A stretch of DNA of 64,000 bases from Candidatus Lloydbacteria bacterium RIFCSPHIGHO2_02_FULL_50_18 (GTDB lineage Bacteria > Patescibacteriota > Minisyncoccia > Phycocordibacterales > UBA6899): assembly GCA_001821395.1 (NCBI GenBank), contig MHLM01000014.1, positions 174,381-238,380 of the forward strand, in the 5' to 3' direction. This document shows positions 3,199 to 64,000 of this stretch, piece by piece. The position numbers and the translations under genes were made by a program. The number at the start of each line of letters is the position of its first letter. Position 1 is the first letter of the stretch. The notes below the pieces were generated by a model. It was not told where the DNA came from. It worked only from the letters and a program-made list of their open reading frames with translations, and searched no databases.

Positions 3199-3762
3199 CT
3201 ATATTTGCCTGCGGAGGATCAGGATGATCACTCCGCTTTGGATAAAAAAGAATGCGATCGGTGTGAGTGCGTATGCGATGGTCATCGAGGGGATCGCAAG
3301 TACACCGAGTGTTGCGGCAAGGAGTCCGTAGAGCCAGCCCCTAAGCGGTTCGTTGTGCGGGTCTTTCCAGAGGTTGATCAGCATCGGTATCGAACCAACG
3401 ATGTTCGCAACGACACTGATGGTGATCGCCACGTTTGCATTACCCGAGAAATACCACCCGACCAACGCCAGGATCACGAGTCCGAAGCAGAAGCTGTCGA
3501 GCTTCTTCCACTCGATCGTCACCTTTTTTACGCCGCAGAGGATGACGATGAGTCCGGTCCCTGCGAAGTAGACGTACATTTGCCGGACAATAGAGTCCTT
3601 CGCGATCATCCCTGCCAAAATGACTGCATCAACGATGAGCCATGAGAGCCACGTAGAGAGAGTTGGTCTCGACGTACCACTAAGGATGGAGCGAATGTAT
3701 GGGACGTATGCCCACACTACGGCGACTATCGCCAGTGCGGTAAAGAAAGAAACACGGTCCAT
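3199..3762 (-). CDS. hypothetical polytopic membrane protein
   Basis: Start chosen at internal ATG (MDRVSFF...) preceded by an AGGGAG-like RBS. At least five hydrophobic segments. The ORF-track upstream extension lacks an RBS. Confidence 0.5.
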   Translation of the reverse strand: MDRVSFFTALAIVAVVWAYVPYIRSILSGTSRPTLSTWLSWLIVDAVILAGMIAKDSIVRQMYVYFAGTGLIVILCGVKKVTIEWKKLDSFCFGLVILALVGWYFSGNANVAITISVVANIVGSIPMLINLWKDPHNEPLRGWLYGLLAATLGVLAIPSMTIAYALTPIAFFFIQSGVIILILRRQI

Positions 3763-3906
3763 AGAGATTCTCCCTAGGTGTTGTTGTGAAGGTGCGTTTG
3801 CTTGACAATGCATTATGTAAACGAAAAAGTCAAACATGAAAAAGTATCTGCAGGCGGACCCTGAAAGAAGAAACGCCCTGCGCATGAAGCGCAGGGCGAG
3901 GATCGA

Positions 3907-4161
3907 TCAATAAGACGTATCACCTTTTGAATTGAGAGAAACATATTCCGGGATGAGTCCCGTTTTGCGCAGCTCTCGCGAGAGTTCCTTGAGGGTGGCG
4001 CCGCTTGCGCGCGCGAGCTCCGTCTTCTTTCCGGCTTCGTCGATCTGATAGATGACGCCTTTTTTGCCGCTACTGCCCTTGCGTCCGCCGCCGATAGCGC
4101 CGTTGCCTTTGCGTTTTGCGGTGATGGTCACAATTCTACCCAACATTGCTCGTTCGCGCAT
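3907..4161 (-). CDS. small basic hypothetical protein (Gly/Lys-rich)
   Basis: 84 aa, 'KRKGNGAIGGGRKGSSGKKG', no family recognised. Compact ORF sitting between two terminated genes. Confidence 0.35.
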   Translation of the reverse strand: MRERAMLGRIVTITAKRKGNGAIGGGRKGSSGKKGVIYQIDEAGKKTELARASGATLKELSRELRKTGLIPEYVSLNSKGDTSY

Positions 4162-4868: not shown

Positions 4869-4960
4869 ATTATTATAGTGTTACGCTTCATTATATCACT
4901 GATCTTCTCTTGAAGTCTCTCCTGTATTGTGAAAAATCTCGGTCGGTGTATTATGCATTC

Positions 4961-14466: not shown

Positions 14467-14748
14467 ATGCTTACGAAAGATGACATCATTAAGGCGCTCA
14501 AGACCGTCGAAGATCCCGAAATACATATTGATGTGTATACACTTGGACTTATCTACAATATCGACATCAATGATGCGGGGATAGACATCTTGATGACGCT
14601 CACGACGCCTTTTTGTCCGTATGGCAATCAGATCGTGCAGGCCGTCGAGAAAGCACTCAAGCCATTCGGACTTGAGGTACGCGTTGAGATCACGTTTGAG
14701 CCCGAGTGGGTTCCACCTGAGGATGTAAGAATAGCCCTGGGGATATAA
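14467..14748 (+). CDS. DUF59/MIP18-family Fe-S assembly protein (SufT-like)
   Basis: 93 aa. 'VEDPEIHIDVYTLGLIY' and 'TLTTPFCPY' are hallmarks of PF01883. Confidence 0.8.
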   Translation: MLTKDDIIKALKTVEDPEIHIDVYTLGLIYNIDINDAGIDILMTLTTPFCPYGNQIVQAVEKALKPFGLEVRVEITFEPEWVPPEDVRIALGI

Positions 14749-14821
14749 TAATTTGACAAAAGCATAAAAAGAAGTCTAACTAGTACTAGAAGTTGTACTC
14801 GTTGACGATGATGTGAATTTG

Positions 14822-14864
14822 CCATAGCCAAAAGTCCTTTGATGAGCTCAGGATTTCTGGCTGT
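14822..14864 (+). repeat. 43-nt conserved hairpin element, copy A (upstream of the 14921 gene)
   Basis: 'catagccaaaagtcctttgatgagctcaggatttctggctgtg' is identical to 15706-15748. It folds as a roughly 17-bp stem with a 13-nt loop. Confidence 0.8.
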
Positions 14865-14920
14865 GGCAAATCTCAATTCCGAGAAACCAGAGCAGTGCGA
14901 CCTCATTTGAGGGAGCAATT

Positions 14921-15529
14921 TTGAAAAGGAGACCCATCATGGGGAAACTTATCACAGAGACACCGTACTCGGAGATTACTGCAACGATGGAGTTGCTCGA
15001 TTCTTTTGGTGTGTCACGGGAAGATCTGACTCGGTTCAGGAAGGCTTCGTGGGAATTGAAGACGAGGGTGGCTGGCCTCATCATCCATGGCGTCTCTCAC
15101 AGCGCCACAATATCCGTCGACTACAATATGCCTCTCAAGGCAATGATTGTCTCCGGGCTTTACGATTGGGTGAACAAGAATATCACTGAAGAACACTTCC
15201 CGATTGCGGAAAGTGGAGTGGCAAATATCACGGTTGAGCTGGTGCAGTTTGGTCGAAAGATTTTATTCGATGATGCCGTCGCCGAATTGCGTCGTCGCGA
15301 TTTACGCCCCGCAACCCTGGCCGAGCTCCTTGCGTTCGGTAATGCGTTCCCCATGGAGCAGTGTAGGTACCCTATTGTGGCGCTTGGCTCCGATGCGATC
15401 GTCGACCGCCTTCGGTACGTCGCATTTATCAGCAAAGAGGGTTCGGATCGGGTTCTCGACCTCGAGTCTACGTTCGGTTATTTTTTTGGCAACGCTCGTT
15501 TTCTTGCCGTGTGCAACAAAGATCTATGA
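14921..15529 (+). CDS. hypothetical protein, paralog A of the tandem cassette pair
   Basis: 202 aa. Shares faint motifs with the 15820 protein ('YDWVNK' vs 'YPDWVKQ'; C-terminal 'VLDLES...ARF' vs 'RLDLHW...AARF'). Confidence 0.5.
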   Translation: MKRRPIMGKLITETPYSEITATMELLDSFGVSREDLTRFRKASWELKTRVAGLIIHGVSHSATISVDYNMPLKAMIVSGLYDWVNKNITEEHFPIAESGVANITVELVQFGRKILFDDAVAELRRRDLRPATLAELLAFGNAFPMEQCRYPIVALGSDAIVDRLRYVAFISKEGSDRVLDLESTFGYFFGNARFLAVCNKDL

Positions 15530-15569
15530 TCCTCGTTTCTCGGGTCTACTTTGTAACCTATTGACCGTC

Positions 15570-15612
15570 AATATCGTCCCGCGCATGTATGCAAATACAG
15601 CGCGGGACTTTT
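15570..15612 (+). terminator. conserved GNRA-tetraloop terminator, copy 1
   Basis: 'cccgcgc a tgtat GCAA ataca gcgcggg' then acttttaaatt; about 40 nt nearly identical to 16468-16511. Confidence 0.65.
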
Positions 15613-15705
15613 AAATTGACAAAAGTGCCACTTGGATTAGGTTGAAGGTATTGTTCTTGGTTTTTTAATGCAGGCGTGCATTCCTGTATGGGGTAGGTCG
15701 GTGGT

Positions 15706-15748
15706 CATAGCCAAAAGTCCTTTGATGAGCTCAGGATTTCTGGCTGTG
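15706..15748 (+). repeat. 43-nt conserved hairpin element, copy B (upstream of the 15820 gene)
   Basis: Identical 43-mer. Flanking bases extend the stem with a compensatory change relative to copy A (C-G in A, T-A in B). Confidence 0.8.
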
Positions 15749-15819
15749 ACCAACGTAGGCCACAGCTCCACCTCGGATGAGAGGAAAATCTACGCACAAT
15801 TGAGTGCAAGGAGAATGAT

Positions 15820-16419
15820 ATGATTAGAGAAAGATTGGCGATCGCTGATGTCACTGGTGGGCAATTGAATGCCATCGTCAAAAAGATCAAAAAAGCTGGC
15901 GGAGTTGATGGCGTCCAACGCTTCTTGTCCGACGAACTCATCGTCACCGCAAAGGAAGACACCATCATCCGCATCACGCGTCCGGTCAAACCGACCTACC
16001 CCGACTGGGTGAAACAGGTGATGCACCCAGAACTAGAAGACGTGGGTCCAGGCGAGTACGATCTCGCTTCCATCGACCTATGGCTCGATGAGCGACAGAT
16101 GAAGAGTAGTGACTACATGAGACAGATGGGGCGGGTCTACGGAAGCGTTATCTACGAAGATTTCAAACACAACGACAGACTTAAAACCTGTCTCGGCCTC
16201 CGAGATGCCGAGGAGATCCAAAAGAAGGGCCCCGCCGTTTTCCGCCGATGCTTCGGCAAGAAAGCGTTGTGCTTTTGGAAGTCGGTTGTCTGCAGCACGG
16301 ATCTTAATCTCCACGTCCCGTGTATCTACGTGTTAAATGATGATGTGGTGATAAGTTGGTACCGGCTCGACCTTCACTGGTCGAGCGACGACAACCTTGC
16401 GGCGCGTTTCACAAGTTAG
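15820..16419 (+). CDS. hypothetical protein, paralog B of the tandem cassette pair
   Basis: 199 aa. Good RBS (AAGGAGAAtgat-ATG). Confidence 0.5.
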   Translation: MIRERLAIADVTGGQLNAIVKKIKKAGGVDGVQRFLSDELIVTAKEDTIIRITRPVKPTYPDWVKQVMHPELEDVGPGEYDLASIDLWLDERQMKSSDYMRQMGRVYGSVIYEDFKHNDRLKTCLGLRDAEEIQKKGPAVFRRCFGKKALCFWKSVVCSTDLNLHVPCIYVLNDDVVISWYRLDLHWSSDDNLAARFTS

Positions 16420-16467
16420 TTCTTTGGGTTCGGTCACTATGTCTTTGTGATATTCTGACCCTCGATA

Positions 16468-16511
16468 TCGCCCCGCGCATGTATGCAAATACACCGCGGG
16501 GCTTTTTGTTT
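16468..16511 (+). terminator. conserved GNRA-tetraloop terminator, copy 2
   Basis: 'ccccgcgc a tgtat GCAA ataca ccgcgggg' then ctttttgttttt. Confidence 0.65.
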
Positions 16512-16537
16512 TTACCCCCCATGATTCATTTTTGGGA

Positions 16538-16572
16538 TAAAAAATCTCCGCGATCGCGGAGATATTTTAATT
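16538..16572. terminator. bidirectional terminator
   Basis: Perfect palindrome atctccgcg-atc-gcggagat, flanked by A-runs and T-runs on both strands. Confidence 0.6.
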
Positions 16573-16586
16573 TATAGAATTCCTTG

Positions 16587-17369
16587 CTACTTCGCCGAAG
16601 GGGCGGCGATAATACCATCAAGCAAAGATTTCACATTTTCGAACGGATAGGCTCCGTTCATTGATACCTGCTTTCCGGTCTTCCTGTTCCAGATGATCGA
16701 GTAGGGGGTTCCGCGAACGCCGACGCTCGCGCCGTTCTCAAAATCACGCTGTACGCGAGGAGCATATTTCCCGCTACTCAAACAGGTGGTGAACTTTGCA
16801 ACATCGACTCCGACCATGCCGGCGATCTGTGGAAGCATTGTAGCGTCAAGTCCATTGTTACCAGGGGTGATCTCGAATATCTTATCAGCGTATTTCCAGA
16901 ATGCATCATTACCGCCGAGTTCATTTGCGCATTCAAGCGCCTCAGCTTCTTTGCGAGCTTTCGGATGCATATCGAGCGGGAAGTGACGATACACCCATGC
17001 GACCTGTCCTGATGTACCATATTCCCCGGCGACGAGAAGCATCGTCTCATGGAGTCGCTTGCAGAATGGGCATTCGGTATCCGAATATTCGATGACCACA
17101 ACATCAGCATCGGGGTTTCCAAGAATGTGGTCGTCGTTCGTGAGCTTAAGCAGGTTGACGTCGACATTGGCGACCGGGGCGTCTGCTGCGGGTGGGGGTA
17201 CCCCGCCGGCGGCTAGTGTTGGTGTTCCTACTGCGGTCTTATTCGAAAAAATGATCGAACCCGCAATGAGTATTCCGGCAAAAACGATCGCGATAGGTAT
17301 GTTGAGACTGTCATCTCTCTTGGTGTGGGTAACATGATGCGTGGCCGGCGTTTGATTTTCTTTTTCCAT
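16587..17369 (-). CDS. DsbA-family thiol:disulfide oxidoreductase, membrane-anchored
   Basis: 260 aa with N-terminal TM, 'CPFC' active site and 'GVRGTPYSII' cis-Pro region. Confidence 0.8.
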   Translation of the reverse strand: MEKENQTPATHHVTHTKRDDSLNIPIAIVFAGILIAGSIIFSNKTAVGTPTLAAGGVPPPAADAPVANVDVNLLKLTNDDHILGNPDADVVVIEYSDTECPFCKRLHETMLLVAGEYGTSGQVAWVYRHFPLDMHPKARKEAEALECANELGGNDAFWKYADKIFEITPGNNGLDATMLPQIAGMVGVDVAKFTTCLSSGKYAPRVQRDFENGASVGVRGTPYSIIWNRKTGKQVSMNGAYPFENVKSLLDGIIAAPSAK

Positions 17370-18677: not shown

Positions 18678-20318
18678 ATGAGCACGAAAAAAACTGATGC
18701 TCCGCACACTGATGCGAAGCCTGAGTCAAGTGGTCATGGTTTTTGCCCGAAGTGTGGGAATGGCTGGCTCGTAAAGGACGGTCAGACCACGAACACTGGT
18801 AGTGAAAAACAGCGCTACCGATGCAGTGCATGTGCGCATAAGACAACTGCACCTTCCGCAGAACATCCTGCCGACGTAGTGACGATGCGCAGTAGTTTGC
18901 CGACGGCAAAACGCTACATCATCACCGCTGCACAAAATGCGACGCCAATTCATAGGCCGACGTGGCTATCACTTCTTTGTGCGGCAAAGTATTACGATGC
19001 CGAACTCGTTGTGATCCCCGGTCGGTATAAGAATCCGACCAGTCAGTGGACGCAAAACAATAAGGACCATGAATGGTGGGATGAGGCGGTTGTGCCATAT
19101 TTGTGCAACGGATGGATCGCGCTCAATGACCGACTGTTGATCCTTGGTGACGTGAAGGTACAGTGGGCGGCACGTCAGCCGCTTGTTGGACTGGACGCAC
19201 TCACCAAAGACAAGAGCGGCATTGTTGGCCACGGCTCTCGCGGAATGCGATCCGTTGCAACTCCGCAACACAAGCATCCCAAGATCATGATGACGACGGG
19301 AGCATGTACGGTGCGCAATTACACCGATACGAAGCAAGGCAAGCTCGGAAAGTTCGCTCACTGCCTCGGTGCTTTGATCGTTGAAGTGGACATCGATGAT
19401 GTATTTCACATCCGTCAGTTGAATGCGACCAAGCAGGGGAGTTTCATTGATCTTGATATGGAATTCACTCCCGAAGGAGCCCGTCCCGCGAAGCCCGCCC
19501 TGTCGATCTCGATGGGTGATATTCACCAGCGATGGATCTTACCTGATGTGGTCAAGGCAACCTTTACTGCACCGGATAGTCTGGTGAAGATGATCAATCC
19601 GCGTTATCTCTTTTGGCATGACACGGTTGATTTTCATTCGCGCAACCATCATCATCAAGATGATTGGATCACCAAATTCGCAAAGTGGAAATATGGGATC
19701 GAGTGTGTGCGCACTGAGGTTGAGGATGCGATACGTTTTGTGAATAAGCACACGACGCAAGGGCGCAAGTCGGTTGTCGTATCGAGCAATCATGATCGTG
19801 CGATCGCGCGGTGGTTGAAGGATGCTGATTTCCGAAATGATCCGGTGAATGCGCAGTTCTATCTCGAATGTGCGTATCGCGCAACGGAGAGTGCGCGACT
19901 GACCGAGGGCGGCGTCGCGTTTGATGACCCCTATGTGTCCTATGCACAAATGTTTGCGAAACCAAACGTGCAGTTCTTAAAGCCCGGGGAAAGCAAGGTG
20001 CTTGCTCAGGTCGAGTATGGATTCCACGGTGACATTGGTCCCAATGGTTCGCGCGGGACGACCAAGAATCTCTCCAAGCTTGGAGTGAAGGTCACGAAGG
20101 GGCACAGCCACACGGCCGAGATCATCGACGGATGCTACAGTGCCGGCAAATCGACCGGCATGCTCGAGTATGAGCATGGCGGACCGAGTAGCCACACCAA
20201 CTCCCACGTTGTGCAGTATGCCAACGGTAAGCGAGCAATTATCATCATCATCAATGGACGGTATTGCTTGAAGCGTCCAAAGAGGGTAATGGTGAAATTA
20301 TCTACGAAGCCTGTTTGA
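18678..20318 (+). CDS. zinc-ribbon / calcineurin-like metallophosphoesterase fusion protein
   Basis: 546 aa. N-terminal 'CPKCGNG...RYRCSACAHK' is a transposase-type (IS1/IS1595-like) Zn ribbon. The C-terminal roughly 270 aa carry ordered MPE motifs: 'GDIH', 'HDTVDFH', 'SNHD' (GNHD), 'GFHGD', 'GHSH' (GHxH). Strong RBS AAAGGAG. Confidence 0.6.
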   Translation: MSTKKTDAPHTDAKPESSGHGFCPKCGNGWLVKDGQTTNTGSEKQRYRCSACAHKTTAPSAEHPADVVTMRSSLPTAKRYIITAAQNATPIHRPTWLSLLCAAKYYDAELVVIPGRYKNPTSQWTQNNKDHEWWDEAVVPYLCNGWIALNDRLLILGDVKVQWAARQPLVGLDALTKDKSGIVGHGSRGMRSVATPQHKHPKIMMTTGACTVRNYTDTKQGKLGKFAHCLGALIVEVDIDDVFHIRQLNATKQGSFIDLDMEFTPEGARPAKPALSISMGDIHQRWILPDVVKATFTAPDSLVKMINPRYLFWHDTVDFHSRNHHHQDDWITKFAKWKYGIECVRTEVEDAIRFVNKHTTQGRKSVVVSSNHDRAIARWLKDADFRNDPVNAQFYLECAYRATESARLTEGGVAFDDPYVSYAQMFAKPNVQFLKPGESKVLAQVEYGFHGDIGPNGSRGTTKNLSKLGVKVTKGHSHTAEIIDGCYSAGKSTGMLEYEHGGPSSHTNSHVVQYANGKRAIIIIINGRYCLKRPKRVMVKLSTKPV

Positions 20319-24092: not shown

Positions 24093-24152
24093 ATATTCAT
24101 TCCTGCCAGAAATAGCTCCAGTTGCGCGGCGTGGAGAAAGCAACGAGCGACT

Positions 24153-24207
24153 AATTTTTCTTAACGGTAACCCGTTTTAGAAAAATGAAGTACTCTCTGT
24201 GGTGGAA
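24153..24207 (+). repeat. roughly 55-nt intergenic repeat, copy 1 (aatttttctt...tttagaaaaatgaagtactc...gtggtg)
   Basis: About 80% identical to 61479-61531, including an exact 20-mer 'tttagaaaaatgaagtactc'. Confidence 0.6.
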
Positions 24208-61378: not shown

Positions 61379-61478
61379 ATTGGCGCCCTACTTGTCCTTC
61401 CTTCGTCGGGTTCGAAGGACGTATGAGGAATACGCCCTCTCGAACACCGACTCAGTCCAAGACTTTGTATTGCGACCA

Positions 61479-61531
61479 ATTTTTCTTGGCCGTATTCAGC
61501 TTTAGAAAAATGAAGTACTCCCGTGGTGCAT
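61479..61531 (+). repeat. roughly 55-nt intergenic repeat, copy 2
   Basis: Matches 24153-24207 (exact 20-mer tttagaaaaatgaagtactc plus flanking similarity). Confidence 0.6.
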
Positions 61532-61989: not shown

Positions 61990-62035
61990 GATGAATTCCC
62001 AAAATCATGCTCACACGGTTAATTACTTTTGTCAA
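61990..62035 (-). promoter_or_regulatory. conserved promoter/operator element copy 1 (TTGACA...gattttgggaat)
   Basis: On the minus strand: TTGACAaaagtaattaaccgtgtgagcatgattttgggaat; about 85% identical to the copy at 62385-62430. Confidence 0.5.
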
Positions 62036-62384: not shown

Positions 62385-62430
62385 GATTCCCAAAATCATA
62401 TTTACACAGTGAATCGCTTTTGTCAACTTT
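62385..62430 (-). promoter_or_regulatory. conserved promoter/operator element copy 2
   Basis: On the minus strand: TTGACAaaagcgattcactgtgtaaatatgattttgggaat, i.e. TTGACA-17-AAATAT followed by the shared 'gattttgggaat'. Confidence 0.5.
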
Positions 62431-63734: not shown

Positions 63735-63763
63735 CTTGCGTACTATTGAAAAATATGATATAA
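63735..63763 (+). promoter_or_regulatory. sigma-70-like promoter TTGCGT-17-TATAAT
   Basis: Good consensus hexamers and spacing. Drives the structured leader at 63771-63957. Confidence 0.55.
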
Positions 63764-63795
63764 TGTCGTTATAAGTTCGTTGAACGTTTTAACGT

Positions 63796-63912
63796 TCGCC
63801 AGAGCAGAAAGTGCCCCATCTAAAGACGGATTAAGGTCTCTCCTTGGCTTTGAAAGGTGAGAACTTAGAGAGGTTGTCCGTCTTTTGTGGATGAGATCTT
63901 TTCTGCTCTGGC
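63796..63912 (+). ncRNA. structured 5' leader or small RNA candidate (15-bp closing stem enclosing roughly 85 nt)
   Basis: cgccagagcagaaag pairs with cttttctgctctggcg. There is an inner 8-bp stem aaagacgg/ccgtcttt and a preceding small hairpin gaacgt-ttta-acgttc. It lies between the promoter and the RBS (AAAGGA) of the gene starting at 63958. Confidence 0.4.
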
Positions 63913-63957
63913 GTAACCATTTCGGTAAGGCTCGGGCAAATTTGAAAGGAATTGTCA

Positions 63958-64000
63958 TGACACAACGTGTCGCCGACAGTGAAATCGATCGCGCGATGAA
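63958..64000 (+). CDS. 5' end of an unidentified gene (MTQRVADSEIDRAM...)
   Basis: ATG after an AAAGGAATTGTC spacer. Truncated by the window edge. Confidence 0.3.

Follow-up and report, generated by a model that had tools for sequence, protein, structure and literature searches.

We analysed a stretch of 64,000 nucleotides (nt) from the contig MHLM01000014.1 of Candidatus Lloydbacteria bacterium RIFCSPHIGHO2_02_FULL_50_18, hereafter the window, in which two neighbouring open reading frames (ORF A and ORF B) are each preceded by a hairpin with the same 43-nt core. This hairpin belongs to a sense-strand helix which is kept by compensatory changes at a fixed place in the leaders of genes of the type diversified by diversity-generating retroelements (DGRs), usually behind a boxA-like motif, and very probably it is an RNA element conserved in the leaders of DGR targets. 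To our knowledge DGRs are the only known case of targeted protein hypermutation in prokaryotes, and the expression and regulation of their target genes and template RNA are, as far as we know, essentially unstudied. DGRs are especially abundant in bacteria of the candidate phyla radiation (CPR; Patescibacteria), to which we assign the hairpin-led genes.

The 43-mer CATAGCCAAAAGTCCTTTGATGAGCTCAGGATTTCTGGCTGTG occurs exactly twice in the window, both times on the + strand (copy A, 14823-14865; copy B, 15706-15748; 883 bp apart), while none of 100 shuffles gave any match. The preliminary description of this DNA had also reported two copies and had placed the second one correctly, but its start for the first, 14822, was one base too low. 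Folded with their flanks as + strand RNA, copies A and B each form a single hairpin of about 20 bp with -34.0 and -34.6 kcal/mol (z = -7.7 and -5.4), whereas the - strand stays at -28 kcal/mol; this deficit of about 6 kcal/mol is due to several of the pairs being G-U. In the core an A.C mismatch separates 8 bp from 7 bp, which are closed by an 11-nt loop (UUGAUGAGCUC) including GAGCUC; a hairpin with GAGCUC in its loop had thus been described rightly, but not with a stem of about 17 bp and a loop of 13 nt. Beyond the core the stem is extended by 5 bp in copy A (UUUGC/GCAAA) and by 4 bp in copy B (UGGU/ACCA), so that the outer bases, as had been claimed, differ between the copies and are nevertheless complementary. 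Including these extensions copy A covers 14818-14870 (5' arm 14818-14838, loop 14839-14849, 3' arm 14850-14870) and copy B 15702-15752, and the stem base reads UUUGCCAUAGC/GCUGUGGCAAA. From the 3' end of the core to the ATG start codons there are 73 nt (A) and 71 nt (B). The 55 nt given before as the lower value are obtained for copy A only if the TTG at 14921 is taken as start; the ATG at 14939 is favoured for ORF A because the N-termini are conserved (MGK/NL.TETPYSE).

A hairpin with a 43-nt core is also found at the same position in front of homologs of ORF A (L014 with 78% identity, and L015) and of ORF B (L016, L017). These hairpins have the same base (CATAG...CTRTG), while their upper stems and loops differ and are compensated. 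The covariance model R1, built from six copies, was searched over 58 metagenomic loci encoding relatives of ORF B, and it matches on the + strand directly upstream of the gene in nearly all loci with upstream sequence. The second model, R2, built from 38 distinct copies, adds three more, namely L021, L078 and a third hairpin of the window (copy C, 63795-63915). Copy A scores 81.3 bits with R1 and 62.5 bits with R2, copy B 75.4 and 52.1 bits. The about 40 metagenomic loci with the hairpin range in GC content from 0.25 to 0.57. Their hairpins are near-perfect helices of 20-26 bp (-24 to -38 kcal/mol) with non-conserved loops of 3-11 nt or more, and they end 21-144 nt before the first possible start codon.

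The 38 copies were aligned with MAFFT, that is without fitting them to the structure. In this alignment 91.1% of the stem cells are paired, compared to 37-46% if the 3' partners are slid; double-sided changes occur in 15 of the 21 stem pairs (163 compensatory cells), the covariation score is reached by none of 500 shuffles, and RNAalifold independently predicts the same helix. The idea of selection on the hairpin itself, first put forward for the two window copies, is therefore borne out by copies from other loci, and with about 40 further loci showing compensatory changes the duplication is no private feature of this genome. A recent local duplication without function, in which the fold is incidental, could explain two exact copies only 883 bp apart, and the -35 boxes and 3' elements of the two cassettes are duplicated as well. 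About 40 unrelated contigs in which the same structure is found with compensated pairs refute it, as does the RNAalifold prediction, and its probability is negligible. In the alignment G-U cells are more frequent than A-C cells (76 to 40 overall, 35 to 11 outside the mid-stem), which points to the sense-strand RNA as the folded species under selection. The lower stem (..GCCAYAGC / GCURUGGC..) is nearly invariant across genomes of 25-57% GC (G16, C17, A22, U56 and G61-C62-U63). Also nearly invariant is a mid-stem patch with the A.C mismatch (20 of 38 copies), an invariant A-U pair and a G.U pair (32 of 38), while the apical part varies freely.

Comparison with Rfam, which the preliminary description had named as a check, shows that the hairpin is in no Rfam 15 family. 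At the gathering threshold the whole window yields tRNA only; an E-value scan of 14700-16600 puts nothing but sub-threshold miRNA and snoRNA noise on the hairpin (at most 21 bits versus thresholds of 85-100), and in ten complete DGR loci Rfam 15 finds only tRNA and tmRNA. An exact 20-mer scan of 185,579 species genomes gave a single match, in a metagenome-assembled genome of Motiliproteus. As the flanks of this match are not complementary we took it as chance and not as a family member; the source genome of the window is evidently outside these representatives. Scans of viral contigs with the core 20-mer and with the gapped consensus lower stem gave 0 matches. The distant ORF A relatives L079 and L080 have other leader structures and give no model match.

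The genes behind the hairpins belong to two protein families, in both of which about 45 C-terminal residues are hypervariable at positions interspersed among fixed scaffold residues. In at least ten loci a repeat of the gene's 3' end, about 125 nt long, follows 400-600 nt downstream, and the mismatches between the two lie only or almost only at adenines of the repeat (12 of 12 in L047, 17 of 17 in L036, 18 of 18 in L026). Such adenine-only mismatches are the signature of template repeat (TR) and variable repeat (VR) which defines DGRs. In homologous loci a reverse transcriptase (RT) of the RVT_1 type is encoded 3' of the template repeat, so that homologs in at least ten loci combine both hallmarks of a DGR, the TR-VR pair with adenine-specific mismatches and the RT; the ORF A homolog in L015 also has TR and RT downstream. 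In complete elements about 1 kb lies between the stop codon of the target and the start of the RT gene, mostly untranslated and often with a terminator-like GC hairpin in between. ORFs resembling bAvd can be found on the opposite strand between TR and RT (L047, 5370-5729, - strand; L078, 7064-7288, - strand), and with this orientation the TR transcript would run antisense into avd.

Within the 64-kb window neither TR nor RT was found, and ORF A and ORF B are identical in sequence in 12 and 14 contigs, respectively, from at least five samples. Therefore we read both genes as orphans: they look like DGR targets which are currently not diversifying. A module of about 45 N-terminal amino acids (aa) in ORF A, MG(K/N)LITETPYSEITAT...RFRK (14939-15080 in the window; P0008-P0015, P0024), is found on at least three unrelated variable-protein bodies. 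One of these bodies is that of ORF B, and L078, which carries both hairpin and DGR, is such a chimera. The distribution of the module indicates domain shuffling among DGR targets.

The third hairpin of the window, copy C (63795-63915, + strand), shares the lower and middle stem (CGCCAGAGCAGAAAG / CUUUUCUGCUCUGGCG) but carries a structured apical insertion of about 76 nt. R2 detects it with 27.4 bits (E 1.7e-4), and it folds with -62.6 kcal/mol (z -6.2). That all hairpins of one genome are identical, an idea we had considered, is ruled out by this copy. Upstream of it lie a promoter-like region (63736-63764, + strand; TTGCGT, 17 nt, TGaTATAAT with an extended -10), which a strict scan misses as only three of six -35 positions match, and a boxA-like motif with one mismatch (63775-63783, + strand; GTTCGTTGA). 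ORF C (MTQRVADSEIDRAM...) starts at 63957 on the + strand and exits the window at 64000; its body resembles the ORF A family, and the fragment gave no match in the protein collection. Every public assembly ends 300-390 nt inside ORF C (L076/L077). VR/TR repeats, or read heterogeneity of an active DGR beyond the window, may be the cause of these assembly breaks.

The leaders share more than the hairpin. In about 30 of 35 loci a near-consensus sigma-70 promoter (TTGACA-N16-18-TATAAT) ends 29-45 nt before the stem. Between promoter and stem lies another conserved element, aGTTCTTTGAta; from its start to the first paired base there are about 20-23 nt, which leaves a spacer of 9-12 nt to the stem in most loci. 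This motif is exact to GTTCTTTGA in 12 of 30 loci and differs from it at no more than two positions in 24 of 30. In about 19 loci an exact GYTCTTTRA stands on the + strand in the 40 nt before the hairpin, and at that position only, where chance would give about 6e-4 per locus. The motif resembles boxA, for which the gamma-proteobacterial consensus is GYTCTTTAANA (PMC5725501), and which reads UGCUCUUUA in rrn operons (PMC2724277). The leaders of L029 and L050 (GTTCTTTAAAA) match the gamma-proteobacterial consensus perfectly, while position 8 of the leader motif is usually G. In the rRNA leader of L030, our one CPR example, GTTTTTTGACAA follows the promoter; the DGR leader of this locus reads GATCTTTGATA, which agrees at eight of the first 11 positions of the rRNA motif. 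To judge from this single rRNA leader, G at position 8 seems normal for the lineage. L030 itself is a CPR contig of 5.6 kb (features at 1306-2864, 3734-4067 and 4873-4941): besides a hairpin-led DGR target it holds the 16S rRNA gene to which this boxA-like leader belongs, and a group I intron match without a call for large-subunit rRNA around it.

In the window the motif is degenerate: cassette A has ACTCGTTGA at 14797-14805 (+ strand; three mismatches to GTTCTTTGA), at the position seen in other loci, and cassette B has GTTCTTGGT at 15653-15661 (+ strand; two mismatches). In L053, L041 and L038 (about 70-130 nt upstream of the hairpins) a tRNA gene ends, and motif and hairpin follow it within about 10 nt and without an intervening promoter, which argues for a role of the motif at the RNA level rather than as promoter DNA. 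The arrangement suggests co-transcription with the tRNA, or insertion beside it. Two other ideas on the leader were rejected. Pairing of the motif with the ribosome-binding site (RBS) gives a duplex of -6.0 kcal/mol, compared to -5.4 kcal/mol for shuffled RBS regions, and for TTGATA in the leader as a second -35 box inspection finds about 9 nt to any -10-like hexamer.

Our preferred, though tentative, interpretation is that boxA and hairpin form a nut-like leader signal for transcript elongation and fate. The boxA-like motif, at the very 5' end of the predicted transcript, would load elongation factors of the NusB/S10 type. The long stem, in which the lower part (CCAYAGC/GCURUGG) is invariant and the middle irregular (A.C, A-U, G.U), would be held by a second factor encoded by the host or by the element; alternatively it might supply the double strand for processing, like the stems of rRNA leaders. 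In this way the signal would govern elongation or read-through, and the fate of the transcript, over the length of the variable-protein gene and, where the element is complete, also in the untranslated template-repeat region of about 1 kb behind it. Copies A and B of the window sit in apparently orphan cassettes in which boxA and -10 have decayed and the hairpin is maintained. As in lambda nut and in the antiterminator leaders of rRNA, a promoter-proximal leader RNA carries a boxA-like sequence (GYUCUUURA compared to the consensus GYUCUUUAANA), and the order of boxA, spacer of 9-12 nt and stem-loop just after the promoter is that of lambda nut (PMC2724277). BoxA leaders are known to protect the long untranslated transcripts of rRNA and CRISPR arrays (PMC7665894), to which the mostly untranslated stretch of about 1 kb downstream in complete elements is a parallel. 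There are differences as well: lambda boxB is an N-bound stem of 5 bp with a GNRA-like or purine-rich pentaloop, while the present stem has 21-26 bp, a conserved lower half and a variable loop. Position 8 of the motif is usually G, the boxA-like motifs of the window have one to three mismatches, and factor binding and antitermination are putative here. BoxA leaders are known for suhB as well.

Several points weigh against the nut-like interpretation. Besides the unlike stem, no N-like protein was identified, and about 8-10 family loci with upstream sequence give no model match. The window copies are weak, with poor -10 hexamers in A and B and mismatches in all three boxA motifs (three, two and one); a decayed boxA next to a kept hairpin rather favours processing or an operator. 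The boxA consensus of the lineage is presumed from the single rRNA leader, and transcription start, processing and read-through are all inferred from sequence. In L047, L022 and L020 the post-VR hairpin is followed by TGnTAtAnT, which resembles an extended -10, so that transcription of the template repeat may start from a promoter of its own. In several loci no terminator-like hairpin was found between gene and template repeat, and boxA of the rrn type is known to act only where termination depends on Rho (PMC2724277).

As the main rival reading, the hairpin could instead be a site of processing or stability for RNase III or another double-strand-specific enzyme, in which case the helix would be cleaved, the 5' leader removed, and half-life or translatability of the mRNA set; we regard this as possible but rather unlikely. 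With about 20 bp of mostly regular double-stranded RNA the hairpin is long enough for an RNase III substrate, it has at least two helical turns, and its one conserved irregularity (A.C + G.U) is of a kind that restricts cleavage in known substrates. It lies in the 5' untranslated region (UTR), no U-tract follows the stem, and it is kept in orphan cassettes without boxA, TR or RT. The vicinity of boxA and long processing stems is, moreover, the arrangement of rRNA operons. Leaders of this kind are known from rnc and pnp, from T7 early mRNAs (T7 R1.1) and from the stems flanking 16S rRNA; they share with the present element the helix of at least 20 bp, the single internal irregularity, the 5' UTR position and the missing terminator tail, but not the strong conservation of the stem sequence nor the constant association with one gene superfamily, and cleavage is putative here. 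RNase III, moreover, needs little sequence specificity, while the lower stem is nearly invariant at 25-57% GC, which points to a sequence-specific reader. An attenuator, another of the roles first proposed for the hairpin, does not agree with the data, since no copy has a U-tract after the stem and a terminator scan calls nothing at the hairpins.

A sequence-specific reader would be at hand if the hairpin were an operator for translation or stability, bound by a dedicated protein (the variable protein, its N-terminal module, or Avd/RT) and giving feedback or coordinated control of all variable-protein genes of a genome. The double-stranded base and mid-stem, conserved in sequence, resemble a protein recognition surface, and there are three hairpin-led genes in one genome. 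The apical parts of A and B are identical to each other and unlike those of their orthologs, as expected if both fit one trans-acting reader. Copy C of the same genome speaks against this, as its very different top and different lower stem leave no single genome-specific hairpin; further, the hairpin subtype is independent of the N-terminal module of the downstream protein, the hairpin lies 20-140 nt from the RBS without sequestering it, and the leader pairs with the RBS no better than with shuffled regions, as given above. An operator appears unlikely to us.

The identity of copies A and B over 43 bases has two components. Throughout the subfamily there is little or no difference in the lower 12 nt of each arm (L035, L045, L029 and L063 compared to copy B, L014 compared to copy A), so that purifying selection explains this part of the match. 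The apical segment of 19 nt, UCCUUUGAUGAGCUCAGGA, is common to A and B only: L014 differs at two positions, and L016 and L017 are unrelated there. The stem extensions of A and B retain family-specific sequences. From this pattern we infer a probable recent short-patch gene conversion or copy event between the two leaders which covered the apical 19 nt.

Another explanation for identical cores would be that the hairpin is a dedicated 5' tag of the DGR, read by RT/Avd or a partner, which marks legitimate targets or couples transcription to mutagenic homing; A and B would then be identical because both match one trans-acting reader. We hold such a tag to be improbable. If true, it would be a second element defining the target besides the initiation of mutagenic homing (IMH) sequence and the 3' cruciform. 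Guo et al. 2011 reportedly described the latter, a GC-rich inverted repeat (hairpin or cruciform) downstream of the variable region. With the IMH and this 3' inverted repeat the leader hairpin has in common that it belongs to the same genetic element and is conserved with the target gene, and the window cassettes carry a 3' hairpin too (15576-15608 and 16470-16502). It differs in standing at the 5' side, with about 600 nt between it and the variable region, in being AU-rich and long, and in its sense-RNA signature.

A function as DNA, either as cruciform or single-strand hairpin for attC-like recombination or as a second homing signal on DGR targets, we judge very improbable. In its favour, a GC-rich hairpin or cruciform of DNA behind the variable region is already in use by DGRs (PMC5758913), cassette B lies between 64-nt direct repeats and is absent from L014, and some cassettes adjoin tRNA genes. 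However, the leader hairpin is located about 600 nt upstream of the variable region and outside the TR-VR homology, always on the sense strand between promoter and RBS, and its G-U cells exceed its A-C cells; the repeats around cassette B are 3' elements and not the hairpin. The stem base lacks integron core sites, and no integrase gene adjoins the cassettes. Like integron attC sites the hairpin is an imperfect inverted repeat that goes along with small cassette-like genes of unknown function, but it stands 5' of the ORF behind a promoter, without R''/R' sites (RYYYAAC/GTTRRRY), and has an mRNA-strand signature. The attC-like site of the preliminary description is accordingly not supported.

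Two DGR surveys (PMC5758913, PMC8144416) cover the IMH and the 3' GC-rich repeat and do not mention a 5' hairpin or promoter. What appears to be new is that a leader RNA organised like a nut site occurs in this kind of element, together with a novel stem-loop partner which is much longer and absent from Rfam 15. The hairpin is a new candidate RNA family for Rfam and could serve as a sequence tag for DGR-type variable-protein genes, including orphans without a nearby RT. A covarying leader hairpin with a boxA-like motif, common to several architectures of target proteins, also offers a testable handle on regulation, and should the nut-like interpretation be true, elongation control of the Nus/boxA type would extend to a retroelement in a lineage of minimal genomes.

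The cassettes A and B of the window share one layout: a TAAwTTGACAAAAG box, the hairpin, a short second hairpin, an AAGGAG RBS, an ORF of about 200 codons and a 64-nt 3' element. The promoter-like region of cassette A (14753-14780, + strand) has a perfect -35 box (TTGACA, 14753-14758), a spacer of 16 nt and a weak -10 (TCTAAC, 14775-14780), that of cassette B (15616-15643, + strand) a TTGACA at 15616-15621 and a weak -10 (TAGGTT, 15638-15643). A strict consensus promoter scan calls neither region, while the positions equivalent to the cassette A promoter hold near-consensus promoters in other loci. ORF A (14939-15529, + strand) encodes 196 aa of a DGR variable-protein family, with the N-terminal module MGKLITETPYSEITAT and about 45 C-terminal aa which correspond to the hypervariable VR of its homologs. 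ORF B (15820-16419, + strand; 199 aa), also of a DGR variable-protein family, has a hypervariable C-terminus ending similar to PA[AL]R[FH]AS and a weak C-type-lectin-like fold. BLASTP finds no similarity between the two proteins, and no Pfam domain was found in either.

The 3' elements (15549-15612 in cassette A and, as its direct repeat, 16443-16506 in cassette B, both + strand) are 84% identical. Each is a conserved post-stop sequence containing a GC-rich hairpin with the conserved 15-nt loop ATGTATGCAAATACA and ending in a T-run (TTTT in cassette A); the stem changes between the two hairpins are compensated. They match the GC-rich inverted repeat known to follow DGR variable regions (PMC5758913). 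The close relative L014 has cassette A at the same site and lacks cassette B, which fits gain or loss of cassette B between its flanking 64-nt direct repeats. The genes around the cassettes are ordinary and encode suf Fe-S assembly proteins, a DsbA-like thioredoxin and an engB-like GTPase. Exact protein matches lead to a Candidatus Lloydbacteria metagenome-assembled genome from Rifle groundwater, GCA_001818945.1. The space between ORF B and the convergent dsbA-like gene holds a bidirectional terminator, a perfect palindrome of 8 bp that has T-runs on both strands (ATCTCCGCGATCGCGGAGAT, 16544-16563).

Elsewhere in the window a 41-nt repeat (83% identical) is found on the - strand at 61995-62035 and 62386-62426, in front of small ORFs of that strand; its last part is the -35 box TTGACAAAAG, the same as before cassettes A and B. 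A direct repeat of 49 nt (84% identical; 24147-24195 and 61472-61520, 37 kb apart) contains the inverted repeat TTTTTCT...AGAAAAA. Finally, an ORF of 546 aa at 18678-20318, which has a weak N-terminal zinc-ribbon signal and is otherwise without a Pfam domain, is conserved across all assemblies of the source genome.

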